Below, piece by piece: positions 44,954-64,000 of a DNA stretch of 64,000 nt. The DNA is from an uncultured Holophaga sp. (GTDB lineage Bacteria > Acidobacteriota > Holophagae > Holophagales > Holophagaceae). Position 1 is the stretch's first letter; the number at the start of each line of letters is the position of its first letter. The position numbers were made by a program, and so were the translations under genes. The DNA lies in the NCBI GenBank assembly GCA_963664825.1, contig OY761614.1, forward strand, positions 2,592,001 to 2,656,000. The letters are read 5' to 3'. A model generated the notes under the pieces. That model was given only the letters and a program-made list of their open reading frames with translations, did not search any database and was not told the origin of the DNA.

Positions 44954-44973
44954 TGGCGGAGGGGGCGGGATTC
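44954..44973 (-). other. tRNA-Ser-like 3'-end fragment (att-like island boundary)
   Basis: Minus strand GAAT-CCCGC-CCCCTCC-G-CCA = T-loop end, 5-nt T-stem, 7-nt acceptor strand, G discriminator, CCA; the rest of the tRNA is absent. Confidence 0.75.
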
Positions 44974-45008
44974 CCCTTGCGGGCCGCACGACTGGCTGCG
45001 TCCGCCGC

Positions 45009-45080
45009 TGTAGCGCGGCAAAATGAATCATCGGGAATCCGTCAGAATGATTGGTAGCTTTCAATCATTTTGACGGATTC
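45009..45080 (+). repeat. Mu-like right end (R1, R2, inverted R3)
   Basis: TGTAGCGCGGCAAAATGAATC; GAATCCGTCAGAATGATTG (45035-53); inverted CAATCATTTTGACGGATTC (45062-80). Confidence 0.8.
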
Positions 45081-45347
45081 TCGGCCTGGAAAGCGCGAGA
45101 GACAAACTGGCTCCCGTTGTCGTGGCGGAGTTTTAACCCGGCGGCGGCTTCTCCCACGCTGCCGAATTCTGATGGCTCTTGTGTCGCTATCACCGCCAAC
45201 CCATGGGGACATACTCGTAAAGTTCATCCCCAATGCGGTTCGAGTAGAACATCCCCCGCCAGAACCGGGGGTTTCCCTAAAAGCAGTGATGCCCGGCCAA
45301 TCTTGGGTGCCGAGGGCTCAAGGGATTACAATCCATCAGAGGCTCAA

Positions 45348-46454
45348 ATGCAGATTGATTTTCACCACGCGACCACCTATGTACTCTCGCGTTTGGCTGG
45401 CTTTAGCCATCCGGAGGCTCGTACCATCGCATATGCGGCGCAATACGTGGACGACGCCACATGTTCGGGCACGGTGTACCTCGAAGGCCGTGCCCCTTTT
45501 GACCGTGTGGCCTCGGCGCACCCGATTGATCCACGGGATGCCGAGTGCCCTCAGGATTTTATGGAAAACGCCAACAACGTGGGCAACTTGGCATCCTGGT
45601 CCCTTTTCCATTTCCTTCCCGGCAATGGCGGGGAAATAGCTGGCCAGGGAATGGATCTTGCCATGGTGGACCGCTTTGTCTGCACTCCGGACAGCCCTGT
45701 CGCCAATGCCATGTGGACTGCCTGCCGGGAGGCCAAGGGTACTCCACATGCCTTATACCGCCTGGGCATCACCGCGCATGTTTATGTCGACACGTGGGCG
45801 CACCAAGGGTTTGTGGGGATGAAACATGCCCGCAACCATGCGCACGACCTTGACCGGCCCGGTTTCAGTGTGAAAGAGCTGCTGGACAACCTTGGATCGC
45901 AGGCATTTCGGGAGTTCCCCTTAGGGCATGCCATGGGTATGACCCTGCCAGACATGCCCTTTCTCACTTGGTCCTATGTCAACTATGATGGGAACAAAAT
46001 CCTTCGCAATAACACTCTCGACTTTCTGGCTGCCAGCCAACGCCTCGTGGAGCAGATGGGGTATTTTCGAGGGGAAGAGGCCCATCTGCAGGAAGCCGAC
46101 CGTGCCGCCCTGGAACATGCCTTCCGGACCATCCAGCACACCGATGGGCGCCAGCGTCACAGGGGATGGTTGGACCTCCTCGCCCACAATCCATTCTCGT
46201 TTGGCATTCTAAGCCCTGTGGAGTTGGAGGAATTGGCATACCCGGACAAAGGTAAGGGCGTTGGATCCTGGAAAGAGGAAGCCCTGGGAACGGCCAGTCT
46301 TGTCAATAACCCTGGCCCTTTCACCTATACCCCAGCTTTTGAAACAAGCCATTGGAAGCTCTTTCATGAAGCTCTCAAGGATCATCGAAATATCGTCTGG
46401 GGAAGCATCTTTCGTGACTTCGGCTTGGTGCCAAGCGTGGCCCTCGAGGCCTGA
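45348..46454 (+). CDS. DUF6765-like protein
   Basis: MQIDFHHATTYVLSRLAGF...IAYAAQYVDD; LGITAHVYVDTWAHQGF. Confidence 0.8.
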   Translation: MQIDFHHATTYVLSRLAGFSHPEARTIAYAAQYVDDATCSGTVYLEGRAPFDRVASAHPIDPRDAECPQDFMENANNVGNLASWSLFHFLPGNGGEIAGQGMDLAMVDRFVCTPDSPVANAMWTACREAKGTPHALYRLGITAHVYVDTWAHQGFVGMKHARNHAHDLDRPGFSVKELLDNLGSQAFREFPLGHAMGMTLPDMPFLTWSYVNYDGNKILRNNTLDFLAASQRLVEQMGYFRGEEAHLQEADRAALEHAFRTIQHTDGRQRHRGWLDLLAHNPFSFGILSPVELEELAYPDKGKGVGSWKEEALGTASLVNNPGPFTYTPAFETSHWKLFHEALKDHRNIVWGSIFRDFGLVPSVALEA

Positions 46455-46540
46455 CGCCAGACGACTTCCACATATGTGCCCTGACCCTCCAAAACCTCAT
46501 CGCAGGGGTGAAGGGCCGCGCAAGGTGAGTCCGACTCCTT

Positions 46541-46759
46541 GTGGTAATAGCCGAGGTAGCCCTTCAGAAACCGCATCAGGTGCTGCTCGTCCAGCACAAT
46601 GACATGGTCGAGTAGCTCACGCCTGAGGGTTTTGATGAAACGCTCGCAGGCACCGTTTTGCCATGGGCTTCGGAAGCTGGCCTGCTTGGGGATGATGCCC
46701 ATAGACTGGATGAACGCCTTCAGGGCACCGAAGATCGTGTCCCGGTCGAAGATCAGATA
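46541..46759 (-). pseudogene. Integrase-core (rve) transposase C-terminal fragment
   Basis: YLIFDRDTIF...SPWQNGACERFIKTLRRELLDHVIV. Confidence 0.85.
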
Positions 46760-46789
46760 CCCTAAAATCCTGAACTACCTAAAAAGTTA

Positions 46790-48119
46790 GGTTCTTCACG
46801 TTTTTCCGGGGAAGGCCGCACGGATCTTAAGGAAGAAGTAGCCCTCATCCCGGTAGCCGTAGGCGATGCGCTTGAGGACTTTGATCTTGTTGTTGATCCC
46901 TTCCTGGACGCTGGTATTGAGCGGCCAGCGGCAATGGGAGAGGATTCCGTCGATCCGCTGGGCGAGATTCTTGGCGAACTTCACGAGGGGCTGGAGTCCA
47001 CTTGAGGTGGCGAGTTCCATCCAGTTCTCCCAGGCCTTCAGAGCCCAGCCCTCCCGCGTGTAGCGCCACAGTGCCTTCAGGGCGTCTTTCAGCACGTAGG
47101 CGGTCATCAGAGGCTGGTTCGCGTCCAATAACTCGTTGAGGCGGACTTTGGCATCCCGATTCGGCAGGTTCTCCCAATTGCCCAGCAGGAGCCACTTCGC
47201 GCCCTTGACGAGCTCCCGCGAGGCCTTGTCGTGCCGGTATCGATTGGCCTCATCCACCCGGATCCGGTCGATGACGTCATGGCCGTACTTTGCCACGACA
47301 TGAAACTGGTCGTAGACGATCTCGGCGTTGGGACAGCGCGCCCGGACTTCGCCTTCGAAGGCCGCCGACATGTCTATGCCCACGGCCTGGATCCGTTTGC
47401 AGCCCTTCTTCCCGATCAGATCGAAGAACGGGCGGATGTCCTCGCGGCCACGCCCTTTCCCGACCCAGAGCACGCGACGCGTTTCCGCATCCGTGATGAC
47501 CGTGGCATAGCTCTGTCCCTTGTGGATGGCGAATTCGTCCATCAGAAGAAGCCTCGCCTTGCTCAGCTTCACGGGCCCAAGTTCTCGGTCCAGGTAAGCC
47601 TTGTCGATCGCCTTCACCGTGCCCCAGTGCAGGTCATAGTGCTCCGCGACCTGTTTGATGGGCATGACCTTGCAAAGCCGCGCCACGCTCGCGGCAAGCC
47701 GGTTCGTGATCCGGGCATGGGGCTCCAACCAGTCCAGGGCTTCCAGCTTCGGGCCGCACCGGGGGCAGGCTACTCGAGCCCGCCACACCACTAGGACTGT
47801 GTCGGCGTCGAACAGCGGAAGGTCGCGGATCTCCCGCTCTGACCAGTCGTGGACGCTCCGCACGAAATGCCCACAACCGCTGCACTTCCGGGGATGATCG
47901 CCGAACCCAAGCAACTCGATCCACACCTCGGCCCGCGGCCCCTTCACCCCGGCTTCGAAGCGCTCCACGATTCCGACGCGTTGCCCTTTCCACCCGCCCA
48001 AGCGGGACATAAGCTCTTTGGTAGGCAGTGGCGGCCTCCTTCATCTCGAGTTCTCGACAAACCCAAGATGCCTGAAATCCGCCACTGCCGACCTACTTCA
48101 CGCAAATCCGCGAAGAACC
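46790..48119 (-). mobile_element. ISL3-family insertion sequence
   Basis: Terminal IRs beginning GGTTCTTC; 8-bp TSD AAAAGTTA (46782-89, 48120-27); empty site seen near 57763-70. Confidence 0.93.
46796..48010 (-). CDS. ISL3 family transposase
   Basis: CxxC...CxxC, MDEFAIHKG, IDMSAAF, YDQFHV, EGINNKIKVLKRIAYGYRD. Confidence 0.95.
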   Translation of the reverse strand: MSRLGGWKGQRVGIVERFEAGVKGPRAEVWIELLGFGDHPRKCSGCGHFVRSVHDWSEREIRDLPLFDADTVLVVWRARVACPRCGPKLEALDWLEPHARITNRLAASVARLCKVMPIKQVAEHYDLHWGTVKAIDKAYLDRELGPVKLSKARLLLMDEFAIHKGQSYATVITDAETRRVLWVGKGRGREDIRPFFDLIGKKGCKRIQAVGIDMSAAFEGEVRARCPNAEIVYDQFHVVAKYGHDVIDRIRVDEANRYRHDKASRELVKGAKWLLLGNWENLPNRDAKVRLNELLDANQPLMTAYVLKDALKALWRYTREGWALKAWENWMELATSSGLQPLVKFAKNLAQRIDGILSHCRWPLNTSVQEGINNKIKVLKRIAYGYRDEGYFFLKIRAAFPGKT

Positions 48120-48148
48120 AAAAGTTAGGGTTTCACTGCGGGGCTCCT

Positions 48149-48406
48149 TCATTCTGGGACCGTCAGCCCACCCGCAATAAGCCCCTCCAGGCTCTTTCGC
48201 TCTACCAGCAGCCTCCGCCCGCCGTTGGGTCCGGGACGCTGCCAGATGGCCACCCTGGGCGCCTTGCGATCACAGCAGGCGGCCCGGAAGGAATCCGGTT
48301 CCATGCCCATGGCGCGGGCGGCGGCCTTGACGGGGATCCAGCCTCCTTCGGAGATTAGCTCTAGGAGATTGGCTGAATCACTGGGCAGACACGGCCCCTG
48401 GCTCAC
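48149..48406 (-). CDS. Small HTH/excisionase-like protein, copy 1
   Basis: WIPVKAAARAMGMEPDSFR; near-identical to 57791-58048. Confidence 0.7.
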   Translation of the reverse strand: MSQGPCLPSDSANLLELISEGGWIPVKAAARAMGMEPDSFRAACCDRKAPRVAIWQRPGPNGGRRLLVERKSLEGLIAGGLTVPE

Positions 48407-48739
48407 TGTTCGTTCCTGGCGAACGGCTGTCCTCATCACTCCTCCTCCACCGCAGGCTTCCCGCTTTTTGGCAGTTTCAGAAAGGGGCCTTGGCCCCTTT
48501 TCTCTGTTTCTCCCCTGCCGTCTGTCCCGGTCGTGAGCCGGTCGATGCGTTCAAGTTTGGCTTCTTTCTGGCGGCTCAAATACAGGCCAAAGGGGAAACA
48601 AGGATGACCGAAGGGAATCCGCCAGGTTCCAGTTTGGACGCTCAATGGATGCGTTCCTGAGGTGGCATTGATGACCAAAGACCGCCCCCGATAGGGGGTG
48701 GGCGTAGGGCACTTCATTCCAAAACGCCAAAAGCTGTCC

Positions 48740-49828
48740 TCATGGTTCGGAACGCGTCAACGACTTTGAGACAGAAAGTTGCCTGAATTCTCGCTTGGAC
48801 CCACCCGCTGCGGAGAGGTGCCGGGGCCATGGACAAGTCTTTGACTTGACCACAGCCCCTTGGAAAACGCTGCGCGTTTCCCACACCTCACAGCAGCCGA
48901 AGGAGATCATCATGCTGCGATTTCCTTTTTTGGGGGATTGATCCACGCCGGACTTGGCAGTGCGGGCGGCGTGGATCTCCTCGGCGCGGCCTTCGTGGAC
49001 GCTGGCGGGCGTCATCATGCCGATGCCGCTGTGCCGATGCAGATGGTTGTACCAATGGAAGTAGCGGCGGCAGAAGCTTCGCGCGTCCTCGATGGAACCG
49101 AACCGCTCCGGGAAGTCGGGGCTGTATTTCAGCGTCTTGAACTGCGATTCGGAATACGGGTTGTCGTCGGAAACGTGAGGCCGACTGTGGCTCTTCGTGA
49201 CCTTCAGGTCGGTGAGGAGGGTGCCCACCGTCTTGGAAACCATGGCTGGGCCTCGGTCCGAATGCAGGGTCAGTTCACCCGGCCGGATGCCATGCTGGAG
49301 GAAGGTCTGGCGGTGGAACTCCCTGGCGAGGTCCTCGTCCTCCCGCTCCTGCACGGTCCAGCCCACGACCAGGCGGCTGAACAGATCGATGGTCACGTAG
49401 AGCTTGAAGCGGCTGCCTCGCACGGGACCCTTGAGATCCGTGATATCCCAGCTCCACACCTGGTTCGGCGCCTGCGCGCAGAGTTCGGGTTTCACATAGA
49501 CCGGATGCCGCGCCTGGTCGCGCCGTTCCTTCACTTCCTGAGCCTCGTCGAGGATTCGGTACATGGTCCGCGACGAGCAGAGATAGCGGCCTTCATCCAT
49601 CAACGTCGCCTGGATCTCGGCGGGCGCACGGTCCACGAAACGCTCCGAATGACACACCTCCAGCACTGCCTGTCGTTCCGAGTCCGAGAGCGCCCGCGGG
49701 GATTTGGGACGAGGCCCGGGTGGACCTTTCGGCTTTCGGCGGCGGTAGAAGGTCGCCCGCGATACGCACAGCAGATCACAGGCCGGCTGAATCCCGATCT
49801 CTTCCGCCAAGGCTACCGCCGCCGTCAT
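48740..49828 (-). CDS. IS3-family transposase OrfB (frameshifted tail)
   Basis: PNQVWSWDIT, LHSDRG, DNPYSESQFKTLK. Confidence 0.9.
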   Translation of the reverse strand: MTAAVALAEEIGIQPACDLLCVSRATFYRRRKPKGPPGPRPKSPRALSDSERQAVLEVCHSERFVDRAPAEIQATLMDEGRYLCSSRTMYRILDEAQEVKERRDQARHPVYVKPELCAQAPNQVWSWDITDLKGPVRGSRFKLYVTIDLFSRLVVGWTVQEREDEDLAREFHRQTFLQHGIRPGELTLHSDRGPAMVSKTVGTLLTDLKVTKSHSRPHVSDDNPYSESQFKTLKYSPDFPERFGSIEDARSFCRRYFHWYNHLHRHSGIGMMTPASVHEGRAEEIHAARTAKSGVDQSPKKGNRSMMISFGCCEVWETRSVFQGAVVKSKTCPWPRHLSAAGGSKREFRQLSVSKSLTRSEP

Positions 49829-50307
49829 TCGCTGTCCTCGTTCTCGAACCGATGGCCCAGCGACAACTTCTCCATCAGTTCGGAGGCTTTTTTTGACATC
49901 TCCAGCATCCACTCGGCCCGCGCCAGCTTGCGTTTCAGGGCCTTGTTCTCCTTCTCCAGTTCCTTGTTCCGGGCCTCGTGCGGATCCCGCGGCTTCGGTC
50001 TCGGCCCTGGTTTTACCGGGTTCAGGGCGCCCAACGCCCCGAGCTCACGCTGCTGCCGCCAACTCGAAAGGTGCGAGGAATAGAGTCCCTCTCGCCGAAG
50101 CAATGCGGCGATCTGGCCCGGCACCGAGCACACATCCACCTCGGCCAGCACCTTCAACTTGTAGCTGGCGCTGAACCGCCGCCGTTTGGGGCGGCTCAAC
50201 TCCACCTCCCCGTTCCCCAACTTCAAGACCTTGCTCATCCCATTTCCTTCCCCGCCCCGACAAAAGACTCTGAAGTGTCTCCTGTCTCAAAAAGCTTGGC
50301 GCGGGGG
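48748..50307 (-). mobile_element. IS3-like insertion sequence with a damaged orfB C-terminus
   Basis: Subterminal inverted motif TGTCTCAAA....TTG(A/G)CGCG at both ends; orfA/orfB; exact tips approximate. Confidence 0.8.
49825..50238 (-). CDS. IS3-family transposase OrfA
   Basis: RRRFSASYKL...LLRREGLYSSHLSSWR; ATGA overlap with orfB. Confidence 0.9.
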   Translation of the reverse strand: MSKVLKLGNGEVELSRPKRRRFSASYKLKVLAEVDVCSVPGQIAALLRREGLYSSHLSSWRQQRELGALGALNPVKPGPRPKPRDPHEARNKELEKENKALKRKLARAEWMLEMSKKASELMEKLSLGHRFENEDSE

Positions 50308-50438
50308 GGTTGGGGTTATCCCCTGATCGAGGATTCCGACCAGATCGCCACCCAGCGCGAGAGTTCGGAAAAACGCCTGGAGAAGACCGGGGCGAACCTG
50401 AAGCCGGAACCGAAGGCGGTCTCGTCGATAAAAGGACC

Positions 50439-53159
50439 CTAAGCTCGGGCAATGGGAGGCATCGATCCTGGGAGTGCAGTTCCTGGCGCTAGGCCCAAAA
50501 CCCCCTGGATTGCATGAGCTAATTCGTGCAACGAATATGGTTTATTTAGCAATTTCACCGCAGGTATGGCCTTGATCCTACAGCTGGTCTCGGCGTCACA
50601 GTGACCCGAGGAAATCAACACCGGGAGTTCTGGGCGCAGCATCCGCAGGCGTACAAGCGTCTCAATACCATTCATTCCAGGCATATTCAGATCCAGGATG
50701 ACCAGATCCACAAGCATCCCGGCTTCCAGCCGCCTTAGGGCCTCCAGACCACTGGAAGCCACTTGGACCTGATGCCCAATCATTTCAAGAAGATCCACGG
50801 CTGATGCTCGGATCAGTTCATCGTCATCCACGATGAGGACCCTGGAGGCTTGGGACCGTTCACCCAGGGTTGGGGTCTGGGCGATTTGGGGAGTTTCTCT
50901 CTTCGCCAGGATGGGAAAACTCAAGGTGATGCAGGTCCCCTCGCCAGGCACACTTCTGATGTCCACCGTGCCGCCATGAGCCTTCACCGTCCCATAGACG
51001 ATAGATAGCCCGAGTCCCGTTCCCTTTCCAGCGGGTTTTGTGGTGAAGAAGGGTTCCATGGCCTTCTCTGCGATTTCACTGGGCATGCCTGCACCGGTAT
51101 CGGTCACAGCGAGTTCGACCAGTTCTTCCCCCCTCTGGCGCGTTTGGAACTTTAGCGAACCTCCCTTGGGCATGGCGTCACAGGCGTTTACGCACAGGTT
51201 CATGAGGACATTGGAGAGAGCGCTGGCTTCTCCCATGATTTCAGGAAGCGGCCTCTGAAGCTCGACCTTGATCTCAATTTTTTTGAAGGTCGTGTGTTTG
51301 AGGAGATCGGCCTCCTGTTCCACCAAGACGTTGAGATCAATGGGCACGGCGTCCTGGACATCCTTGCGGGAGAAATCAGTGAGGCCCTTCACAAGATCTC
51401 GCCCGCGAATCGCGGCTTGAGCGATGACATCGAGTTTGTGAACCTGCCTCTCGTCGAGGCTTGGATCGGCCTGTAATATGTTAGTCATAGCCAAAATGGC
51501 CGCGAGCACATTATTCATGTCATGAGAGACGCCCCCCGCCAAACGGCCCACACTTTCCAATCTTTGGAGATGATTTAGCTCCTGTTCGAGTTGATGTTCC
51601 TTCTCTCGGGCGGCTTTTATTTCTGTGACATCTCGGATGAGATCCACAAGAATGGGCTGCCCACCCAACTGGATGATTTCTGCCGAAAGTAGCGCCTGGC
51701 CGACCTCTCCAGAAGCCCTGCGAAAGGTGAGTTCAAAATTCCGGATTCGCCCCGTTGATGCGAGCCGGTCCATCGCGACCTGCCGCTGTTCAGGCTGGTC
51801 CCAGAGCCCCAGTTCTATGGTCGTTCTGCCCAATACCTGATTGAGTTCGAAACCCGCCAGGGTGAGAAAGGCCCCATTGGCTTCGATGATGACGGTGTCC
51901 TCAACGCGCACCAGGACGATGGGTATCGGCGAAGCGCGAAAGACCGCTGCAAACCGAGCTTCACTGATGCGCAGTTCGGCATCGGCCCGTCGGCGATCCG
52001 TGATATCGGTGTGGATGATCACCAAGCCCCTGCGGCTTCCCGTAAGGGCCGTGGCCGCAAGATGGAACCAGCGCTCCTGATCGGGAGCGGGGCAGGGGTA
52101 TTCGATTTCGAAACGGGGCAGGTCGCCCTTCAGGAGTGCCTGGAACCCTTCCAGACATGTTTTGGCCTCCGTCTCTGAATGGGCGTTGCGGAGGGTCTCG
52201 AAGTAATTCACACCGATACCCGAGGCAAGGGCTTCATCTGCCCCGTTGGCCTGTCCAAAATCCACCCAGGCCCGGTTCACATCGAGGATGCGCCCCTCTT
52301 CATCCAGCACCACGAGACCCGGCCCCATGCTGTCCATCACTGCCCGCAGAAGTGTCTCGGAATCATGGAGGGCTGTCTCTGCGTCCCGTCTCCGCTGAAT
52401 GTCCTCCACGATGCACACAAGATAATCCGGGTCCCCTTGGGGATTCCGCACGAGGGAAACCGAAAGGGAGATCCAGACTTCAGTGCCATTTTTTCGTATA
52501 TTCGGTTTCTCCTCCAGATAGGTCGATTTTTCGCCTTCTAGGAGCAGCCCAATCTTGGCCCGTGTTGAAGCGGCCCATTGAGGAGAACACAGGTCCTGGG
52601 TTCGAAGACACAGCAGCTCCTCTTGGGAGTAGCCCAAAATATCGCATAGGCGCTGATTGACTCGGAGGAAGCGCCCATCCAGGGCGACCTGGGCGATGCC
52701 GATAGCGGCTTGCTCAAAGGTCGCCTGGAAGCGAGCCTCCGAGGCGGCCAGGGCTTGCAAACCTTCGATACTGGCCTTGCGGGTGTGGGCTCCAAGCACG
52801 GCCTGTTGGATGGCAGCCACCAGGCGGCCTGGTCGGTCCTTGAGGATGAAATCCTGGACCCCTAATTTTAAGAGGGCCACGGCTTCTTCTTCCCCAACGC
52901 TCCCGGAGAAGAGGATGACGGGCAACTTGGGATCGTAGGCCTGGATCCGGTTGAGGGTTTCGCGGAAGGGCATTCCTGGTACGGAGTAATCCGATACGAT
53001 GACATCCCAGGGCCCATGTTGGAGTGCCGCATCAAGATCCCCCATGCGATCGATGCGCTGAGCTTCTGCGACGAGCCCTTCCTGTTTTAATAGGTGCAAA
53101 GTCAATAAGTAGTCTGCGGCAGAATCTTCCACGGAAAGCAGGCGAACAGGGGGACGCAT
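50439..53159 (-). CDS. Hybrid kinase REC-PAS(x3)-HisKA-HATPase-REC
   Basis: N-terminal VEDS...SDY receiver, PAS/PAC repeats, GGVSHDMNN, GTGLGL, C-terminal VDDD receiver. Confidence 0.93.
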   Translation of the reverse strand: MRPPVRLLSVEDSAADYLLTLHLLKQEGLVAEAQRIDRMGDLDAALQHGPWDVIVSDYSVPGMPFRETLNRIQAYDPKLPVILFSGSVGEEEAVALLKLGVQDFILKDRPGRLVAAIQQAVLGAHTRKASIEGLQALAASEARFQATFEQAAIGIAQVALDGRFLRVNQRLCDILGYSQEELLCLRTQDLCSPQWAASTRAKIGLLLEGEKSTYLEEKPNIRKNGTEVWISLSVSLVRNPQGDPDYLVCIVEDIQRRRDAETALHDSETLLRAVMDSMGPGLVVLDEEGRILDVNRAWVDFGQANGADEALASGIGVNYFETLRNAHSETEAKTCLEGFQALLKGDLPRFEIEYPCPAPDQERWFHLAATALTGSRRGLVIIHTDITDRRRADAELRISEARFAAVFRASPIPIVLVRVEDTVIIEANGAFLTLAGFELNQVLGRTTIELGLWDQPEQRQVAMDRLASTGRIRNFELTFRRASGEVGQALLSAEIIQLGGQPILVDLIRDVTEIKAAREKEHQLEQELNHLQRLESVGRLAGGVSHDMNNVLAAILAMTNILQADPSLDERQVHKLDVIAQAAIRGRDLVKGLTDFSRKDVQDAVPIDLNVLVEQEADLLKHTTFKKIEIKVELQRPLPEIMGEASALSNVLMNLCVNACDAMPKGGSLKFQTRQRGEELVELAVTDTGAGMPSEIAEKAMEPFFTTKPAGKGTGLGLSIVYGTVKAHGGTVDIRSVPGEGTCITLSFPILAKRETPQIAQTPTLGERSQASRVLIVDDDELIRASAVDLLEMIGHQVQVASSGLEALRRLEAGMLVDLVILDLNMPGMNGIETLVRLRMLRPELPVLISSGHCDAETSCRIKAIPAVKLLNKPYSLHELAHAIQGVLGLAPGTALPGSMPPIARA

Positions 53160-53162
53160 CGT

Positions 53163-53588
53163 TCACTCCGCACTGGGGGCAACGGGTTCGTTGATGATGG
53201 CCCAGTAGAATCCAACCCTTGCAACGGTGTCGGCGAATTCGGAAAAATCCACGGGTTTTCGCACAAAACTATTGGCTCCATGTTTGTAGCTATTTATACG
53301 GTCCTGTTCCTCGTCCGAGGACGTCAAAATCGCCACCGGCAGCAATTTGGTCCTGGGCTCTTCTCGCAGGCGTGCGAGGACTTCCAACCCTCCGATCCGA
53401 GGCAGGCCGAGGTCGAGCATGACAACCACCGGCAGCTCCTGCTTGGGATCAAGCAGGAGATCCAGGGCCTGCTGACCATCCCGGACCACGAGAATGGGAT
53501 TGGCAATATTCGCCTTCCGGAGGGCTCGGAGCGTAAGCATTTCATCCTGGATATTGTCCTCCACCAGGAGGATGGACTTGAGGGTCAT
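53163..53588 (-). CDS. Single-domain response regulator (Rcp1-like)
   Basis: LLVEDN, LDLGLP, LTSS, GANSFVRKP. Confidence 0.93.
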   Translation of the reverse strand: MTLKSILLVEDNIQDEMLTLRALRKANIANPILVVRDGQQALDLLLDPKQELPVVVMLDLGLPRIGGLEVLARLREEPRTKLLPVAILTSSDEEQDRINSYKHGANSFVRKPVDFSEFADTVARVGFYWAIINEPVAPSAE

Positions 53589-56548
53589 GGCTGGGACTCC
53601 GCGGGGCTGGGAAGGGTGAATTCGAAACGGGCGCCTTGATTGGGATGAGCCTCGGCCTGGATGCTTCCACCATGCCTGTGGATGATGCGCTGGACCGTCG
53701 CTAAACCAATGCCAATCCCGGGGAACTCATCCTGGCGGTGAAGGCGCTGAAAGGGTTGGAAGAGCTTGGTGGCGTGAGCCATATCGAACCCTGCGCCATT
53801 GTCCTCAACGACAAACCTTGCCTCTCCCCTCCGGAACCCGATGATGGCGGGATGACGGCCCTCGGTGTATTTCCAGGCGTTCCCGATCAGATTGCGCATC
53901 ATGGCTTCGATCAGCCGCGGATCGCCCCAGGCCTGCAAGTTGGATGCGATTTTCCAGACCACCTCGCGCCTGGGCTCCGAGGCCTCCAGATCCGTCCGAA
54001 TCCGCTCGACGAGGTCTGAAAGGTCCACCCAGCCTCGGTGCAGCTCGCCCCGGGTCACGCGACTCAATTGGAGGATGCCATCGATCAGGTCGGACATGCG
54101 ATTGCTGGCCAGCACGATCTGGTTGAGAAAGTTCTTTTCCGTGTTCTCAAGCTTGGGACTCAGATCCTCCATCAAGGCGAGGCTGAATCCGTTCATCGCG
54201 CGCAGGGGAGCCCTAAGGTCATGGGACACCGCATAAGCAAAGCTCTCGAGTTCGGTGTTGGCGGCTTGGAGTTCGGCGGTTCGCTCTTGAATGCGTTGCT
54301 CGAGGTGGGTGTTCAACTGCTGAATTTCATCTTCCATTCGTTTGGCTTCGGTGATATCTCGTCCCACGACAACAGCTCCCATAATCTCGCCGGAATCGTC
54401 CCGAATGGGCGCAAAGCTGTAACTTGCGACCCAAGACTCGCCGGTATCGCGTCTTCGAAGTTCATATACGGCATTGGAGGCCTTTTCGCCACGCAAGGCC
54501 CGCGGTACGGCCCATTGGGAAATGGGTGTGACTTGACCATCGGGGTAAAACATTTCCAGGCATGTTTGGTACCCGTTAAAGTTTTTTGCGCAGTCCTCTT
54601 TGCTCTCAAATTTGTGGAAAGTGGAAAAGGCCTCGTTGAATTCGATGGCGTTACCTTTCATATCTGAAATAAGCACAGCATCTTGCATGTTTTCCAGGGC
54701 TGCTTCGAGTTTTGCCCTGCTATCCCGAATAGCCGCTTCCGCTAAACGACGTTCAGTGATGTCATACACGATGGTGCATAGCAGTACACGGCTTTGCACC
54801 GGGATGGGTCCGCTGAAAACCTCCACATCGCGAATGCTCCCATCGGCTCGTCGGTGTTGGAAGAAGAAGTGTCGTTGACTTCCTCGATCGGAACACTGCA
54901 TGGCTTCATGGATCTTATCCGCTGGGAGCGTATTGATCTGAGCGATGTTCATTCGCCGAAGCTCATCAGCATCCCAGCCATAGAAATTGATGGCAGCTGG
55001 ATTGGCATCGACAATTGAACCCGTATCTTGGTCTATAATTAGTATTACACTGTAATTGTTATAGAAAAGGCTGCGATAGCGTTCCTCACTCTCGCGGAGT
55101 GCTTCTTCAGCCTGGATTCGCTGGGTGATGTCTTCGGAGAAGATGACGATTCCCGCAACTTGGCCGTCGAGGTCATGCCAGGGGCGGACTTCCCAGCGCA
55201 GCCACTGGACGGTGCCATCGAGGCGCTCAAACCGATCTCGCTCCTTCCGGATGACTTCGCCGCGCAGGCCTCGCTGATGGACCTCACGCCAGAAGGCTGG
55301 AATTTCAGGGAAGATCTCGTAGTGTGAATGTGCCAAGATCTCCCGCTCACCCAGGCCGTAGTCCTCGCGCCATTGGCGGCTGGCAGCGAGGTAGCGCACG
55401 TCCGTGTCGAACATCGCCAGCGACATGGGCGCATGCTCGATGAGGAGCCGCATCCTGGATTCGCCATCCCGCAGGGCGAAATCGATCTGCTTGCGGTCTG
55501 TGATGTCCTGCATCATGCCCCGCAGTGCACAGATCTCCCCATTGGCGTCACGCATGGCTTCACCGCGCGCTTCCGCCCAACCCGTGCCTCCATCTGCGCG
55601 AATGACACGGGTCTCCACGGAATAGGGGACTCCATCCTGGAGAGTTTGTTGAACCGCAGCTGAGAGCCGCACCCAACTCTCCGGCATAAAGTACCCTTCA
55701 ACTTCCTGGAAGTTTAAGGGTTTGCCGGACGGATCCAGGCCGAACATGTGAAACATCTCTCGGGACCAGACCGGGATATCTTGTTTGAAATCCCAGGCCC
55801 AACTGCCAATATGCCCCAGCTGCTGAATGTCTTCCAATAATTCGAGACTCTCGCGCAAGGATTGTTCGGTGGCTTTCCTGGCTCGGATATCTTCGGTCAC
55901 CGCGATAAAGAAACTCGGCCTGCCATTGGGTTTGCGCTGAAGGGCTTCGGTGATCTGCACCCAGCAGGCACTTCCGTCCTTGCAAAGGATTCTCTTGTCC
56001 CTTGTGAAGGTCTGGTTTTCCCCACTGCGCAGGCCTGCTTCGGCCAAGAGGTCCTGCTCCACATCTTCGGGGTGCGTGAGCTCCGATGCTTTGCGTCCGA
56101 TCAATTCGTGAGCGGCATATCCGGTGATATCACACAATCGCTGGTTCACCTCTTCCCAGTAGCCATCAGGTGAGACGAGGGCCATGCCAACAGCTGCTTG
56201 ATTAAATGCGGCATGGAACCTGGAATTAGACCCTTCTAAGGCTCGGTGCAATTGTGCATGAGTTCGACTGAACAAGAAGCCCACGAGGATGAAGAGGGCC
56301 AGCGACCAAAGACTGGAGATGCCCTTCTGAGCCCACTGCATACTCGGCGGAATAAAGAAATACCAGACAATCCAGGCGCTCTGGACCGTGCCCAGCAGGC
56401 CTCCCCAAAGGCCCCCCAAGTGGCCGCAAAAAAAGACTGTCGGATAGAACAAAAACCATACATATGGATGAATCCAGGGCCAGAGCTGCCATTGCAAGGC
56501 CAGTGCAAGCCAGGGCAATAATGCGATCAATACGCGGTGTTTTCGCAT
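53585..56548 (-). CDS. Membrane multi-PAS sensor histidine kinase
   Basis: N-terminal TM bundle, about five PAS/PAC repeats, SHDLRAPLR, DNGAGF, GIGIGLA. Confidence 0.93.
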   Translation of the reverse strand: MRKHRVLIALLPWLALALQWQLWPWIHPYVWFLFYPTVFFCGHLGGLWGGLLGTVQSAWIVWYFFIPPSMQWAQKGISSLWSLALFILVGFLFSRTHAQLHRALEGSNSRFHAAFNQAAVGMALVSPDGYWEEVNQRLCDITGYAAHELIGRKASELTHPEDVEQDLLAEAGLRSGENQTFTRDKRILCKDGSACWVQITEALQRKPNGRPSFFIAVTEDIRARKATEQSLRESLELLEDIQQLGHIGSWAWDFKQDIPVWSREMFHMFGLDPSGKPLNFQEVEGYFMPESWVRLSAAVQQTLQDGVPYSVETRVIRADGGTGWAEARGEAMRDANGEICALRGMMQDITDRKQIDFALRDGESRMRLLIEHAPMSLAMFDTDVRYLAASRQWREDYGLGEREILAHSHYEIFPEIPAFWREVHQRGLRGEVIRKERDRFERLDGTVQWLRWEVRPWHDLDGQVAGIVIFSEDITQRIQAEEALRESEERYRSLFYNNYSVILIIDQDTGSIVDANPAAINFYGWDADELRRMNIAQINTLPADKIHEAMQCSDRGSQRHFFFQHRRADGSIRDVEVFSGPIPVQSRVLLCTIVYDITERRLAEAAIRDSRAKLEAALENMQDAVLISDMKGNAIEFNEAFSTFHKFESKEDCAKNFNGYQTCLEMFYPDGQVTPISQWAVPRALRGEKASNAVYELRRRDTGESWVASYSFAPIRDDSGEIMGAVVVGRDITEAKRMEDEIQQLNTHLEQRIQERTAELQAANTELESFAYAVSHDLRAPLRAMNGFSLALMEDLSPKLENTEKNFLNQIVLASNRMSDLIDGILQLSRVTRGELHRGWVDLSDLVERIRTDLEASEPRREVVWKIASNLQAWGDPRLIEAMMRNLIGNAWKYTEGRHPAIIGFRRGEARFVVEDNGAGFDMAHATKLFQPFQRLHRQDEFPGIGIGLATVQRIIHRHGGSIQAEAHPNQGARFEFTLPSPAESQP

Positions 56549-56756
56549 TTTTTATTTATTAATCCCGGGATTGTATTTATATTAATACTGGTCTTGCTAT
56601 CCGTTTCCTTACGTATCGGACATATTTAGGCCCAGCATGAAAATTCACTCGCGAATCGTCTGATAGAGTCCCATCAAGTAGTGTAAGAGCGATGGCCACA
56701 TAGGTTGGCCACCGGGTCCGTAAGGTGAGTTTGCCGCTTACCGAACGGAGGGACCG

Positions 56757-56935
56757 ATGGCCATGGATAGGGTGTCGGGGCTAGAAGCCCTGAGCAAGGT
56801 GTTGGAGGAAGGGAACAGTGATTTCCTGCGGCGGGTGCTGCTGATGGGGCTGCAGGCGGTGATGGAGTCCGACGTGGCCGGGCTTTGCCAATCGGGTCCA
56901 GGCGAGCGGACACCCTCACGGGAAAATCACCGGGC
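56757..56935 (+). pseudogene. IS256-family transposase N-terminal fragment
   Basis: DFLRRVL...MESDV...GERTPSRENHR then loses similarity. Confidence 0.65.
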
Positions 56936-57236
56936 TTCCAGCCATTCCGCACAGGTGGCCACCATCGCGGCTTCTTCCACCAGACGGTCGGAAACTTGCT
57001 CATCTGTTCCTGGCGTGGGGTGGCCCTAGCCAAAACCTCATCGTAGGGGTGGAGGGCCGCTGCGAAGGCACCGAAGTCCATCGGTCGCGGCCCATCTGAA
57101 GGCCCCGCTCTGAAGGTTTTTGGCTTTCAGGGCGGAGTACCACCTGAGCTTCAACTTCTGAGCATTTTCCGGGCAGGCTCACGCCTGCCCGATCCATGTC
57201 GGGCCAGTAGGACCCTTTACAGATTCAGGCGGCCAT

Positions 57237-57680
57237 TCACCGCTGCACACTGCGCTCCGAAAGGTGAAAACCAAGGCGAAGCAACTCCCCGTGGATTCTC
57301 GGCGCCCCCCAGAGAGGGTTCTCGCGCGCCATGCGGCGAATCAGAACCCGAAGATTCCCGGAGATGGCGGGCCGACCTACCTTGCGTGTCTTCCTGGACT
57401 TCCAGCGCCAGAAGAGACGGAAGCCTGCTCGATGCCAATAGATGACGGTGGCGGGCTTCACCACCATGCAGACCTCCTGCCATCGGGGCCAGATCCGGCT
57501 CAGCATGGCCCAGAACACCCGATCACGGGCTTGGAGGCGGACCTTCCTGGTGCGGCGGAGCAGGACGGCGTTCTGCTGACGAAGGGCCAGATTCTCCTGG
57601 ATCAAGTCCTTGACCCATCCTGTCTCCTTTCCTGGGCAGGGAAGCAGCCATAGCACCATCAATCGAACAAACCATTTCAT
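57237..57680 (-). pseudogene. Integrase-core transposase N-terminal fragment
   Basis: ENLALRQQ, VKPATVIYWHR, GRP, RMARENPLWGAPRIHGEL; truncated. Confidence 0.85.
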
Positions 57681-57790
57681 GAGGACATCATGTCATGGCT
57701 GGCTGAGTCGACGTTGTGGGCAATACCCCGAGTGGCCTTACCCTAAAATCCTGAACCACCTAAAAAGTTAGGGTTTCACTGCGGGCTCCT

Positions 57791-58048
57791 TCATTCTGGG
57801 ACAGTCAGCCCACCCGCAATAAGCTCTTCCAGGCTCTTTCGCTCAACAAGCAGCCTCCGCCCGCCGTTGGGTCCGGGACGCTGCCAGATGGCCACCCTAG
57901 GCGCCTTGCGATCACAGTAGGCGGCCCGGAAGGAATCCGGTTCCATGCCCATGGCGCGGGCGGCGGCCTTCACGGGGATCCAGTTTCCTTCGGAGATTAG
58001 CTCTAGGAGATTGGCTGAATCACTGGGCAGACAGGGTCCCTGGCTCAC
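57791..58048 (-). CDS. Small HTH/excisionase-like protein, copy 2
   Basis: 85 aa; GTGA overlap with the upstream stop. Confidence 0.72.
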   Translation of the reverse strand: MSQGPCLPSDSANLLELISEGNWIPVKAAARAMGMEPDSFRAAYCDRKAPRVAIWQRPGPNGGRRLLVERKSLEELIAGGLTVPE

Positions 58049-59232
58049 TGTTCGTTCCTGGTGAACGGCTGCCCTAGCGCGTTAGCGACGGCCAGGGCGA
58101 AGGCGGAGTCATTGATGAGGAGGTCGTTAACCCGGCTGACTTCCTCCAGGTCGCGGTCCTCCGGGTTGGCGTACAGGGGATCATCCCAGATGACGAAAAC
58201 GTCCAGCGTGTGGCCATCAATAGACCAGCACTGGTAGGGAAGGCTGGGCTTGCGACGCACATAGGGGCCCTTGTCGGTGAGGGCTTTCCGAGTGCCCATG
58301 CGAAGCCCCATGAGGACGGCGGGATCCAGCTCCTGCAGGCGGCGCCGAACGGTCGCCTCGGAAATGGTGTATCCCTTCTGCTGGAGCACGTCGGCGGCGC
58401 CGATGTAGCTGCCCGTGTGGGCGAAGGCGCCACGGATTTCGTCATCCAGGCCCGGGGTTTGATCCGTGCGTCGGGGGCGGCCACAGGCGGAGTGGTGAGG
58501 CTTGAGGGCGTCGCCCGTGGGGTCCTGGGCATACAGCCCCCACCAGCGGCGCAGCGTGTTATCGCTGGGCGCGGATTTGAGGACCTTGAGGATGGCCTGA
58601 CCTTCGGAGGAGGTCCGCAGCCACTGCTGGGCCTCATCCAGGACATAGGAGGGGACTCCGCCCCGAACGGAGCGGCGTTCCCACGGATTCAGGCTGGCCA
58701 ACCTCGGGCGGACAGCCAGATCCAGGAAGCTCAGCCGCGCCTGCTGGATGGCCTGCGCCCGCTGGAGGGCGTCGGGATTGGCCCGGAGTACTACCTGCTG
58801 AGGATCGCGCTTGATCGGCGCGGGGCGGGTGGCCACGGGGCAGGGCTGGATCGAGGCCTGCTGACGCTCCCAGGCTGCGCGGGCGCCGGGATAGAGCGCG
58901 ATAAGGGCCTCCAGATGGATGGAATATTCAGTTCGCCCTTTGTTGGGGCCACTTTGGGTAATGTGAGGGGCTGCGTGCAGGCGCTCGCTCTGAATCGCCT
59001 TCAGGATGGCTTGCCTGGATTTCCCGGTTAGCTCGGCCGCTTCCGTAATCGTGAGCGCGACAACCTGTTCGGAATCTGTCGTTGTGAGCGCATCGCCCAT
59101 AACGCCATCAGAATCTATACTTTTCGAAGGATTTTGGGTCGCGACAACCGGTTGTCGCGTTGTGGCGGGGAGCGTGACAACCGTGACAACTTTGGGTTGT
59201 CGCGAGGGGATATGTTGAGGTGAGATCTGCAT
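58045..59232 (-). pseudogene. Truncated MuA-like transposase fused to the tail of a downstream gene
   Basis: Three HTH-like segments (TITEAAELTGKSRQAI; PSDNTLRRW; ISEATVRRRL) and WSIDGHTLDV first-Asp motif, then abrupt end; start may be ATG 59100. Confidence 0.78.
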
Positions 59233-59240
59233 AATCGCTT

Positions 59241-59573
59241 CTACGCGATTTCTTTCCGGAGCCGCCCCCAGATGCGGTCAGCTTCGAGCCCTAAGGTTTC
59301 TGCCAGGACGTCTTCCACCACCACGTCACGACAGTCCCGGTTGATAACCTGATGGAAGTAAGGGTCCGTGTACCCGTGCGTCTCGGCTAGCACACGGACA
59401 TTGACACCTTTGAGCTTCAGGAGGGCTCGGACGGCTTCCGGTTTCAGGCTGCCATCCAGATTGATGCCATTCGACATGAGATGTTGAACATCCGAAGCCG
59501 TGGCTAGGATGGCTTGGGTGCTTGGAGGCAGGCCATAGGCCGCCCTCTTGCGCGGGGCTTTTTCGGGTAGCAT
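59241..59573 (-). CDS. Ner/Nlp-like DNA-binding protein
   Basis: PEAVRALLKLKGVNVRVLA...EDVLAETLGLEADRIW pattern; divergent from the repressor. Confidence 0.8.
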   Translation of the reverse strand: MLPEKAPRKRAAYGLPPSTQAILATASDVQHLMSNGINLDGSLKPEAVRALLKLKGVNVRVLAETHGYTDPYFHQVINRDCRDVVVEDVLAETLGLEADRIWGRLRKEIA

Positions 59574-59603
59574 TCAAGTCTCCGATTACTTAGTTCACGA
59601 AGT

Positions 59604-60398
59604 GTGAACAGGAGAACAGTAAGTCTCGATAGGAAACACGTCAAGAGGTTGTTGCGCATCGTGAGCAAAGCTGAAATTCAGACTCCAGGCAAAAGGGTTA
59701 GACGCGCAAGGACCGCGCTGGGTAAAACTCTGGAATCTTTTGGCGCGCCAATGGAACGTTCACGTGCTGCGATTTCACGATGGGAGACGGACCAGATAAG
59801 CCTCACTGCTCTCGAAGCGGGAGCCATGGAGCACTTCCACGGCATCTCGGCCGCTTGGATCCTGAGGGGTGAAGAACCGATATGGGTTCCAGCAACCCTA
59901 GCTCCGCTAGATGATGCCGAGACCGAATATCGCCCAGTAATCCCTGGAGCCGCCTCTTGTGGGCCTGGTGGCGAAATTGCAGATCCAGGACCTTCGGCTT
60001 ACCGCCTTCCCTTCCGCAAAGACTTCCTCCAGGAGCTACTCCGCGAATGTGGAGGGGGCACCGCAGCGGATTGCTACGTTGTGGAATGCACAGGTGAGTC
60101 CATGCGTCCAACGCTCCACCCAGGAGACTTGGTGCTGATAAACACCGCGTTGGAACTGCGCGTGGAACCAGAACGGGACGCGCTCTATCTGGTACGCACA
60201 GACCCGACCAGCGTAGATGCCCGAATTAAGCGTGTCCACGTTAAGGATGATCGAATTTGTTTCGCCTCAGACGCCTCTGGATTCAAGACAATCGCGATCA
60301 ATGTGGATGGTATCCCGATCCAGCGCCTCATCCTCGGCCGCGTCTGTTGGATCGCCCGCAGTGTGGTGAAGGACGAGCGCCCAGAGCGGAACTGGTAG
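59604..60398 (+). CDS. Phage CI-type repressor (XRE HTH + S24 peptidase)
   Basis: RAAISRWE...WILRGE; GESMRPTL (Ser) and IKRV (Lys); start may be 59661. Confidence 0.9.
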   Translation: MNRRTVSLDRKHVKRLLRIVSKAEIQTPGKRVRRARTALGKTLESFGAPMERSRAAISRWETDQISLTALEAGAMEHFHGISAAWILRGEEPIWVPATLAPLDDAETEYRPVIPGAASCGPGGEIADPGPSAYRLPFRKDFLQELLRECGGGTAADCYVVECTGESMRPTLHPGDLVLINTALELRVEPERDALYLVRTDPTSVDARIKRVHVKDDRICFASDASGFKTIAINVDGIPIQRLILGRVCWIARSVVKDERPERNW

Positions 60399-60409
60399 GC
60401 GACTCGTTC

Positions 60410-60629
60410 CAACCATATTGACGGATTTAGAAGCCTCGCGCAGGATCCGAAGCTTACCCGCAGGATTCGTGCACCCTTTTTGACGGATTTCCGCTTCGTT
60501 ACGCGTCATCCGTCCCAAACTTATTGACGGATTTTCAGGTCTCTAGATCACCCACAAAGCCCCGCCCTTGTTGGCTTTTAGGCCATGTGCCCGAATCGGT
60601 CGTCATGCGAATTATTTCGACGGATCACA
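60410..60629 (-). repeat. Mu-like left end (L1 plus three internal sites)
   Basis: CA-N7-TGACGGATTT at 60410-28, 60472-90, 60516-34; terminal GAATTATTTCGACGGATCACA 60609-29. Confidence 0.82.
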
Positions 60630-60879
60630 GCGGGATTCCCCGGTGGGCCGCACGACTGGCTGCGCCCGTGTAGCGCGGCAAAATGAATCATCGGGAATCC
60701 GTCAGAATGATTGGTAGCTTTCAATCATTCTGACGGGTTTGGCCTATCGGTCTCAGCTCTCGCGACGGAAGCGGAGTCTATTGTTGAAAAGCCTCTGAAG
60801 GGCTGAACCCTGAAGGCCTCGCTGAGTGCAACATTCTTGGGGCATCCACGGGCGATCATGATGCGCTCTTGGCCTTCTC

Positions 60880-61482: not shown

Positions 61483-61689
61483 TCAAATACAGGCACTATT
61501 TACTGCAATGCTGATACAAACTTGGTGGATTGAATCACAATTAAAGACTGTGTCATTGCAGTACCATGAATTACGATGCTGCGCTTCACATTTGTCTATG
61601 GGTTTGGTATACACACCACCTGCTACTTCCAGGGTATCTGCAGCGTTCAACTGCTTGAGCGTTTCCTTTGAAAGGGTGAGTTTATTCAC
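61483..61689 (-). CDS. RiPP precursor peptide (double-glycine leader, lanthipeptide-like)
   Basis: AGGAGA RBS + GTG; leader MNKLTLSKETLKQLNAADTLEVAGG; 43-aa core with 5 Cys and 6 Ser/Thr. Confidence 0.85.
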   Translation of the reverse strand: MNKLTLSKETLKQLNAADTLEVAGGVYTKPIDKCEAQHRNSWYCNDTVFNCDSIHQVCISIAVNSACI

Positions 61690-61804
61690 GGGTTCTCCTG
61701 GAAAAAGGAAGGGGATTTGAAAATTTGCATCCAACGGATGCGTTGATTGGGGATTCTTCAGTAATTCTCCGCTCTTGCTGGGTTGCGTCAAGTTATTTTG
61801 CCCT

Positions 61805-63871: not shown

Positions 63872-63872
63872 A

Positions 63873-64000
63873 TCACCCACGGCCCGCCTCCATGGCCATA
63901 ACGATCTCTCGGAAGGCGCCTGCCTGTTTGGAGAGTGCAGCATAGGTCCCCTGCTGGGCGATGCGCCCATCCTCCAGCACCAGGATTCGATCCGCGTCCT
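63873..64000 (-). CDS. ABC transporter C-terminus (partial; upstream partner exporter)
   Basis: My translation ...DADRILVLEDGRIAQQGTYAALSKQAGAFREIV...RG*; stop 1 nt before the next ATG. Confidence 0.85.
   Translation of the reverse strand, partial: DADRILVLEDGRIAQQGTYAALSKQAGAFREIVMAMEAGRG

Follow-up and report, generated by a model that had tools for sequence, protein, structure and literature searches.

A decayed Mu-like prophage behind a serine tRNA gene in an uncultured Holophaga sp., and evidence suggesting that its phage family aims integration at tRNA genes

A 15.6-kb element in the genome of an uncultured Holophaga sp. (Acidobacteriota; assembly GCA_963664825.1, contig OY761614.1) combines the ends of a transposable phage with a load of host-type genes, which raises the questions of whether it is a cargo transposon in its own right or the residue of a phage, and of how it came to lie behind a tRNA gene. 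The element occupies positions 45009-60629 of a window of 64,000 nt (contig positions 2,592,001 to 2,656,000, forward strand); coordinates are those of the window unless marked as genome positions, the host genome (3.47 Mb) is designated G000, and genomes of relatives carry other G numbers. The first-pass annotation had described the element as a natural mini-Mu. Our reading, which we regard as probable, is that a Mu-like prophage has decayed here, that it forms the distal half of a tandem pair behind tRNA-Ser(TGA), and that its parent phage aims its integration behind tRNA genes. The cargo-filled remnant itself is an ordinary case of prophage decay; what would be unusual is the oriented, tRNA-directed integration of the phage family.

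The Mu-type architecture proposed for the ends was found in the sequence. The element begins with TGT at 45009 and finishes with ACA at 60627-60629, its terminal 21-mers are identical at 13 of 21 positions, and the recurrent motif lies at about 45035 (direct), at 45062-45079 (inverted), and at 60410, 60472 and 60516, the last separated from the terminal 21-mer by 74 bp. Phage Mu has R1 and R2 in direct and R3 in inverted orientation, with a gap after L1; the left end of the element has four sites (the terminal one and three more), one more than the three of Mu. The ends and the adjoining early genes, which Pfam and PHROGs identified as a CI-like repressor, ner and a MuA-like gene in the claimed order left end-c-ner-A, are as follows.

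45009..45079, + strand: right end (R), with the terminal site, a second site in direct and a third site in inverted orientation
58045..59232, - strand: MuA-like transposase, internally deleted (phrog_310 transposase, E 8.6e-14)
59241..59573, - strand: ner-like regulator (phrog_769, E 7.8e-7)
59604..60398, + strand: c repressor with helix-turn-helix (HTH) and S24 peptidase (Peptidase_S24, E 2.8e-9; phrog_4, E 2.6e-24), reading frame intact
60410..60629, - strand: left end (L), with the terminal site, a 74-bp gap and three more sites

The layout of sites at the right end is the same as in an intact prophage of G066, and the left terminus is shared with G019, G066, G082, G093 and G094. A scan of the 3.47-Mb genome returned 20 exact matches to the core TTGACGGATT, 14 of which lay no more than 230 bp from one of the 11 element ends (seven right and four left ends of this type are present in G000), while one more lay inside a sister remnant. 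The end-proximal windows make up 0.08% of the genome, and the motif is tied to element ends rather than scattered by chance, an enrichment that rests on exact-core counts and not on position weight matrix scores. We infer that the end sites are transposase-binding sites. A lone strong copy of the end motif was also noted mid-genome, just after gemA (L004:1721-1741; genome 2673720), and the same gemA-adjacent copy occurs at about position 14,740 of the intact G066 prophage; it may be a conserved internal site for transposase or repressor.

As the first-pass annotation had stated, no phage structural genes occur within 45009-60629, and host-type cargo stands in place of the late region. The element had also been taken as the inserted unit, which did not hold. 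The 5-bp flanks of its two ends are unlike (GCCGC at 45009, GCGGG at 60629), with no target-site duplication (TSD) around it, and GCCGC at the 45009 side pairs with a left end at genome 2677958. Because the flanks differ and GCCGC follows genome 2677958, what the duplication encloses is a stack of two remnants, 40,950 bp long and oriented alike. The outer left end of this stack lies 117 bp downstream of tRNA-Ser(TGA). The second remnant, 25,290 bp in length, extends past the window to genome 2677958 and retains gam, gemA, an antirepressor, c, ner and an A stub. The junctions of the stack in the window are listed below.

44954..44973, - strand: duplicated 3' end of tRNA-Ser(TGA), the intact gene being at genome 2678076-2678165 on the minus strand, beyond the window
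44974..45008: distal half of a tRNA-linked palindromic repeat, split by the insertion and ending with the target duplication GCCGC (45004-45008)
60630..60668: 39-bp spacer, a 90% identical copy of 44965-45004 (tRNA-Ser T-stem and repeat)
60669..60739, + strand: right end of the second stacked remnant, 97% identical to the first right end and 39 bp past 60629

Since the spacer copies the DNA just outside 45009, it represents target DNA of the same type of site, and at least three insertions have therefore occurred in this zone in this lineage. Judged from its sequence, the spacer is target DNA of a second allele trapped between two insertions. The present stack may have formed by recombination between alleles, or as a composite that moved on its outer ends. 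A genomic island placed by a tRNA-targeting integrase was considered and rejected: the Pfam scan revealed no integrase gene in 45009-60629, the borders are Mu ends, and the duplicated tRNA 3' end belongs to the tRNA-linked repeat outside them.

The defect of the element lies in its transposase. The A gene (58045..59232) matches intact family members until just past the first catalytic Asp (WSIDGHTLD) and then continues in frame at the family C-terminus, of which the last 40 residues match (tail E 1.7e-4); about 390-420 residues of the DDE core are gone, and the N-terminal DNA-binding region is retained. The proposed homology to MuA was thus upheld by phrog_310, for a gene that has lost its catalytic core. 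No intact A was found in G000, which yielded only IS-type matches and two A stubs, and no B was detected at E<=1e-15, so that no intact MuA/MuB paralogues that could act as helpers for mobilisation in trans were found in the genome. The element cannot move by itself; it might conceivably be mobilised in trans by a superinfecting relative.

The family around the element is one of complete phages. Sister remnants in G000 retain terminase large subunit, portal, major head, gam and gemA genes, and an intact member in G066 (38,476 bp, TSD ATCAG) has A, B, head and tail genes, its left end being 78 bp behind tRNA-Ser(GCT). Intact A and B were present in G066, G019 and G021, B being next after A in intact relatives. 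Besides the 40,950-bp stack, seven other end pairs are bounded by 5-bp TSDs; the exceptions are 45009-60629, G091a and G094. Short TSD-bounded derivatives were found in G093 (4,148 bp), G091 (12,347 and 18,719 bp) and G000 (4,941 bp). The c and ner genes are kept in all four left arms of G000 and in the short G093 and G091 derivatives, which would fit retention for immunity. The element in the window is accordingly a remnant of a Mu-like prophage, with its ends, the TSD of its stack and the early module present and the transposase core, B and virion genes lost. Of the earlier description as a Mu-derived non-autonomous element, the Mu-like descent stands; a separate class of cargo transposon does not, the element being a deletion derivative of a complete prophage family.

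These observations bear on the view of the first-pass annotation that the element is a stand-alone, non-autonomous mini-Mu of 15.6 kb, bearing cargo and moved in trans as a unit, which we consider improbable. Both of its ends look intact, and short derivatives bounded by TSDs do exist in G000 and in relatives. A copy of its left arm at genome 3459590, flanked by a 5-bp duplication of its own, matches it with 99.93% identity over 1,461 bp, which argues for recent transposition activity in the lineage, and the whole stack, having a TSD, could have moved as one composite. Set against movement as a unit are the missing TSD around 45009-60629, the lack of intact A or B in the genome, cargo that is single-copy and borne by no second element, and the retained c repressor, which by analogy with Mu ought to shut down a homoimmune helper.

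The transposase clade is distant from named phages, which gave at best 27-34% identity over about 250 residues; six clusters at E<1e-30 were recovered among 1.84 billion representatives, and the transposase alignment, run as a profile against the PDB, gave no match. Right-end DNA of the window was not found by BLAST in 60 relatives, and a degenerate right-end pattern located right ends in G066, G093 and G094, with additional matches in G019:C7 and G115. The end patterns gave 0 and 1 matches in viral contigs, scans of metagenomes gave 0 matches and one short contig without ends, and no B homologue was found at E<=1e-25 in 367 other genomes of the phylum outside the host family. Homology of prophage regions was compared by tblastn. 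Side observations on the family include a sigma-70-like factor in the early region of intact prophages (L041:12127-12801; L029:12079-13071), with Mor in addition in G021, and a contig of G094 that ends just outside both element ends without a TSD, which would fit transpositional replication and packaging with host DNA. In addition, a tyrosine-integrase prophage at tRNA-Ser (L128; G143:C304) carries a homologue of the c repressor, suggesting that immunity modules are exchanged between transposable and integrase phages.

To see where such prophages lie, 133 genomes of the host family were searched by end pattern, A, ner, c and B, and a left end was scored as near a tRNA when the 3' end of a tRNA (T-arm..CCA) lay within 250 bp upstream in the same orientation. 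By this strict rule, 12 of 18 left ends, in 8 of 10 genomes, were located 35-226 bp downstream of the 3' end of a tRNA for Ser, Pro, Arg or Lys. All 12 had the left end first, and no right end facing a tRNA 3' end was seen. The chance per oriented site is about 0.002, giving a binomial probability of about 1e-29, or about 1e-17 when prophages are assumed to be tolerated in just a tenth of the genome. The first set, obtained with the left-end pattern and transposase searches (G019, G066, G082, G093 and G094), had left ends at +100 and, in G019, +35 (nested +47 and +70), at +78 in G066, and at +92 and +226, all behind tRNA-Ser genes or their 3' parts, the +226 end being at +38 from a duplicated tRNA 3' end. 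The ner search, which followed a tRNA-Ser idea fixed beforehand, yielded nine further loci, whose end sequence was different. Six of the nine passed the strict rule, 91-192 bp behind tRNA-Pro, -Ser, -Arg or -Lys; of the others, one lay behind tRNA-Ser 3' remnants (by eye), one was 1,107 bp downstream of tRNA-Ser(GCT) in the same orientation and one was not evaluable. Specificity for tRNA-Ser alone was rejected, as tRNAs for Pro, Arg and Lys also serve as sites in this second subfamily. Excluded before the count of 18 were G010 (a one-mismatch match inside a coding region labelled gyrB-like by eye), G143 (the c homologue in the tyrosine-integrase prophage, with no Mu end), G025, G118, G019:C175, L045 and L061 (contig stops before the left end), and L046 (19 bp of flank).

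The TSDs differ (GCCGC, ATCAG, GCAAA, AGAAG, CTGGC and CTGTC), and the variety of tRNAs, distances and TSDs indicates independent insertion events. At G019:C113 (L025:7461-7520), three nested left-end starts lie 12 and 23 bp apart behind tRNA-Ser(TGA), and the divergent tRNA-Ser(GCT) is likewise followed by the left end of another element, both tRNAs of the pair being occupied; the nested ends at +35, +47 and +70 suggest repeated hits, or an assembly artefact. The position of relatives behind tRNA genes in a fixed orientation suggests that this Mu-like phage aims its integration rather than integrating at random. Both subfamilies share the tRNA habit and have different end sequences, with A 22%, B 54% and a winged-helix protein encoded behind B 42% identical between them. 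A habit common to subfamilies with transposases that are only 22% identical points to B and its partners, or to a feature of the host.

Two genes behind B encode accessory proteins, one with tandem winged helices (PHROG 2030) and one with an HTH and a zinc finger (PHROG 2119). The latter had seemed TniQ-like by sequence pattern and was dropped as such, its best fold match being the MuB N-terminal domain (2mqk; Z 6.2, root-mean-square deviation 2.5, 58 aligned); this resemblance implies that B is split in the family. The winged-helix protein gave generic tandem winged-helix matches only, and TniQ was absent from the fold-search matches of both accessory proteins, a result that does not exclude TniQ. 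A predicted complex of the B ATPase with the winged-helix protein scored 0.80, versus 0.24 for the best of three controls, with contact agreement of at least 55% and partner per-residue confidence (pLDDT) of at least 76; the mark of this test was reached by 116 of 157 solved complexes and by 2 of 215 mismatched pairs. The winged-helix protein is thus predicted by modelling to bind the B ATPase. No TniQ, TnsD, TnsA or Cas family was found above the cut-off in 44 early-region open reading frames (ORFs) of G066 and G021; late genes of intact prophages were scanned against PHROGs only, and one weak TnsD match (E 0.0023, below the cut-off) fell on the terminase small subunit. RNA-guided homing, and with it membership of the CRISPR-associated transposons (CAST) or CasMu, was rejected, as no Cas family occurs in the 44 ORFs and the longest matches of four prophages to a tRNA target region were 11-15 nt, within a null range of 11-17. 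By analogy, the winged-helix protein may be a TniQ/TnsD-like adaptor and is the most likely selector, an assignment that we put forward tentatively.

Several points weigh against aimed integration and this selector. The genomes are kin and not independent, and several are metagenome-assembled genomes. Three of the 18 left ends have no nearby tRNA (G000 759706, G000 3459590 and G094), the site at G000 759706 being 183 bp upstream of tRNA-Ser(CGA) and the G094 flank comprising just 141 bp without a TSD. The window's own left end adjoins merely a 9-bp T-stem remnant. The distance to the tRNA varies sixfold, versus 30-33 nt for TnsD homing (PMC10293859). Concerning the selector, neighbouring genes sometimes pass the complex test (7 of 44), a predicted binding to B says nothing on DNA specificity, and winged-helix homologues occur in RcapMu, RcWaterboi, RR1-B and vB_RhkS_P1, for which no report of tRNA targeting was found; the available part of PMC8601537 mentions no tRNA preference.

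Prophages seen in genomes are, moreover, survivors of selection, and integration could be random as in Mu if only prophages behind tRNAs survived and decayed slowly. Regions adjacent to tRNA genes are in general island-rich and neutral, and the three sites elsewhere would suit such a history. The probability of the count remains near 1e-17 even if prophages are tolerated in just a tenth of the genome, selection offers no obvious reason for a 200-bp window or a single orientation, and the intact G066 and G021 prophages obey the tRNA rule too; we hold this explanation to be highly improbable.

A target in the DNA itself deserves more weight, and is still unlikely in our judgement. Hairpin-rich repeats or terminators behind tRNA genes might attract the phage through DNA structure or a host protein, as at hotspots of the repetitive extragenic palindrome (REP) or bacterial interspersed mosaic element (BIME) type, with no selector of phage origin. 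About 7-8 sites (by eye) are in or at palindromic repeats behind tRNAs, and the true target may therefore be hairpins. In G000, the insertion cut through the centre of a perfect 8-bp inverted repeat; G021, G091a and G091c lie at or just after the same palindrome, and G066, G093 and G137 lie in or at similar repeats (by eye). Palindromic repeats are present behind several G000 tRNAs, in Pseudomonas phage Ab30, 42 hotspots adjoin BIME elements (PMC5977238), and Mu in E. coli avoids mature tRNA sequence and enters leaders and 3' trailers (PMC7350765). By eye, however, the palindrome is absent at G004, G091b, both G019:C113 sites and G019:C50, and the Ab30 hotspots account for 5% of events without orientation bias, whereas all 12 near-tRNA sites here have the left end first.

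As for the repeats themselves, short palindromic repeats lie behind the terminators of several G000 tRNA genes, namely Pro(CGG) 321186, Pro(GGG) 1859025, Phe 1901011, Met 2942444, Gln(TTG) 3266316 and Gly(CCC) 3438939 (genome positions), with examples in the window at 44954-45008 and 60630-60668. They start with an inverted copy of the T-arm and often finish with a duplicate tRNA 3' end, and those in the window gave no Rfam match.

Under aimed integration, the course of events might be as follows. The parent phage would integrate by ordinary MuA strand transfer. On infection, its B ATPase would be loaded with a fixed polarity close to the 3' end of a tRNA gene, and prophages would consequently arrive in a safe zone past the tRNA terminator, their left end being the one closer to the tRNA. 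The selector would be the tandem winged-helix protein, acting like TniQ/TnsD without being TniQ. During lytic replication, jumps elsewhere would also be possible. Repeated hits on one zone would build stacks, in which IS-driven deletion and recombination between remnants would remove late genes and trap cargo, c and ner being kept, probably for immunity. In its fullest form, the proposal is of a Tn7-like phage clade with two modes, in which a winged-helix adaptor on B homes lysogeny behind tRNAs in fixed orientation and lytic replication is untargeted, with a selector that is neither TniQ nor CRISPR; this is conceivable, with the chances somewhat against it. If true, PHROG 2030, which other Mu-like phages also encode behind B, would represent a family of retargetable selectors, and could explain focused sites such as that of Citromicrobium phiA as well.

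The remaining contents of the element are cargo (DUF6765, two PAS kinases and a response regulator) interspersed with pieces of ISL3, IS3 and IS256 type, and are listed together with the start of the cargo of the second remnant.

45348..46454, + strand: cargo gene, DUF6765 (Pfam E 2.9e-84), single copy in the genome
46787..48119, - strand: ISL3-family insertion sequence, with 12 more near-identical copies in the genome
48120..48435, - strand: second copy (about 95% identical) of the last A codons and the small HTH gene
48740..50308, - strand: IS3-type insertion sequence (rve, HTH_Tnp_1)
50439-53159, - strand: hybrid PAS kinase, cargo (block 50439..56548)
53163-53588, - strand: single-domain response regulator, cargo
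53585-56548, - strand: PAS histidine kinase, cargo
56661..57738, strand unassigned: IS256-type and other insertion sequence fragments
57791..58048, - strand: small phage HTH protein with excisionase-like features
61483..63970, - strand: start of the second remnant's cargo, with a lanthipeptide-like precursor (61483-61791, label by eye) and a peptide ABC exporter

In the intact G066 prophage, a homologue of the small HTH protein (57791..58048), 54% identical to it, lies at the boundary between early and late regions. The duplicate at 48120..48435 appears to be a sign that the element is a mosaic of two remnants, and cargo interleaved with insertion sequences and duplicated phage DNA is the usual picture of IS-driven remodelling. 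In the second remnant, a class I lanthipeptide-like cluster (window 61483-64000 and L003:1-10470), interrupted by IS66, contains the precursor, two ABC exporters, HlyD, a LanB-like protein of 1084 aa and a LanC-like protein of 438 aa; the genes for HlyD and the LanB-like and LanC-like proteins are located beyond the window.

Further observations concern the surroundings. In run X6 (contigs only, 88% likeness), one low-depth contig (2.9) fuses a left end to position 44751 of the window, some 200 bp past the copy of the tRNA 3' end, and a contig of run X2 resembles an empty allele; neither is more than a hint. The stretches of about 430 bp that follow tRNA-Ser(CGA) at genome 754494 and tRNA-Ser(GCT) at genome 2678342 are nearly identical, hinting at a common island end or a rearrangement. 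Behind tRNA-Ser(CGA), there are more remnant late genes and right ends at 748181 and 745374, with no left end; these right ends point as the tRNA rule predicts. The host gene at 44118-44834 contains a tandem duplication of 306 bp (90% identical) and gave no match to Pfam above the cut-off. ARAGORN called a 94-nt tRNA-Trp at 20197-20290, which was unconfirmed by Rfam, apparently lies within coding sequence and is probably a false call.

Mu is the classic example of random integration, and target selection is commonly taken to distinguish the Tn7 branch from the Mu branch. The present family resembles Mu and Mu-like phages in its TG..CA ends, repeated sites, 5-bp duplication, c-ner-A-B order, gam, gemA and Mu-type head genes. 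Unlike in Mu, the MuB N-terminal HTH is a separate protein, the transposase clade is distant, the sites at tRNAs are oriented and the copy in the window is defective. The nearest named relatives, RcapMu, RcWaterboi and Rhizobium phage RR1-B, have the same winged-helix gene behind B, and the B of this family is 35-40% identical to that of RcapMu and RR1-B. No description of tRNA-homing Mu-like phages was found in titles and abstract openings of a literature that excluded most subscription journals and all supplements; tRNA is absent from papers on Leptospira transposable prophages and hankyphage, has 0 occurrences in PMC5977238 on Ab30 and 2P1, and the available parts of PMC8541194, PMC5357137 and bioRxiv 10.1101/2021.07.06.451292 added nothing on tRNA targeting.

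Focused integration by Mu-like phages is known from Citromicrobium, in which phiA has a 40-bp integration zone (n=24) in a hypothetical gene, phiB has six hotspots, and both transpose replicatively genome-wide (PMC12486242). These phages share focused integration with the present family and differ in that their target is not a tRNA and no selector or orientation rule is given in the available part of that report. Pseudomonas phages Ab30 and 2P1 are likewise drawn to palindromic repeats, in 5% of replicative events and without orientation bias (PMC5977238). In the CasMu systems, CRISPR modules are added to Mu transposases (PMC10910872, PMC11656645); CasMu-I and CasMu-V are similar in joining a Mu transposase to a proposed added targeting module and adaptor, and differ in being CRISPR-associated (PMC10910872).

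A tRNA-homing Mu-like family with a small candidate adaptor for B would allow the origin of target selectors on AAA+ transposition regulators to be tested, as well as the way in which a phage alternates between integration that is aimed and replication that is random. Mu transpososomes work efficiently with a load of about 40 kb, and a protein selector would be of interest to genome engineers. The remnant stacks, in addition, show tRNA sites turning into cargo islands, here with two-component systems and a lanthipeptide-like cluster.

The closest functional parallel is Tn7, in which TnsD recruits the AAA+ TnsC via its TniQ domain and orientation is controlled (PMC11406308). Tn7-like tRNA homers, which use TnsD/TniQ or a guide RNA (CAST I-B2, I-D and V-K), share with this family a DDE transposase with an AAA+ ATPase, the 5-bp duplication, insertion downstream of tRNA genes, controlled orientation and stacking (PMC11406308, PMC10293859). 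Unlike them, the present family consists of tailed phages, keeps a looser distance to the tRNA and has no TnsA, TniQ, TnsD or Cas match above the cut-off in the 44 early ORFs. Its integration works like Tn7 homing, yet the family is not classed as Tn7-like or CAST.

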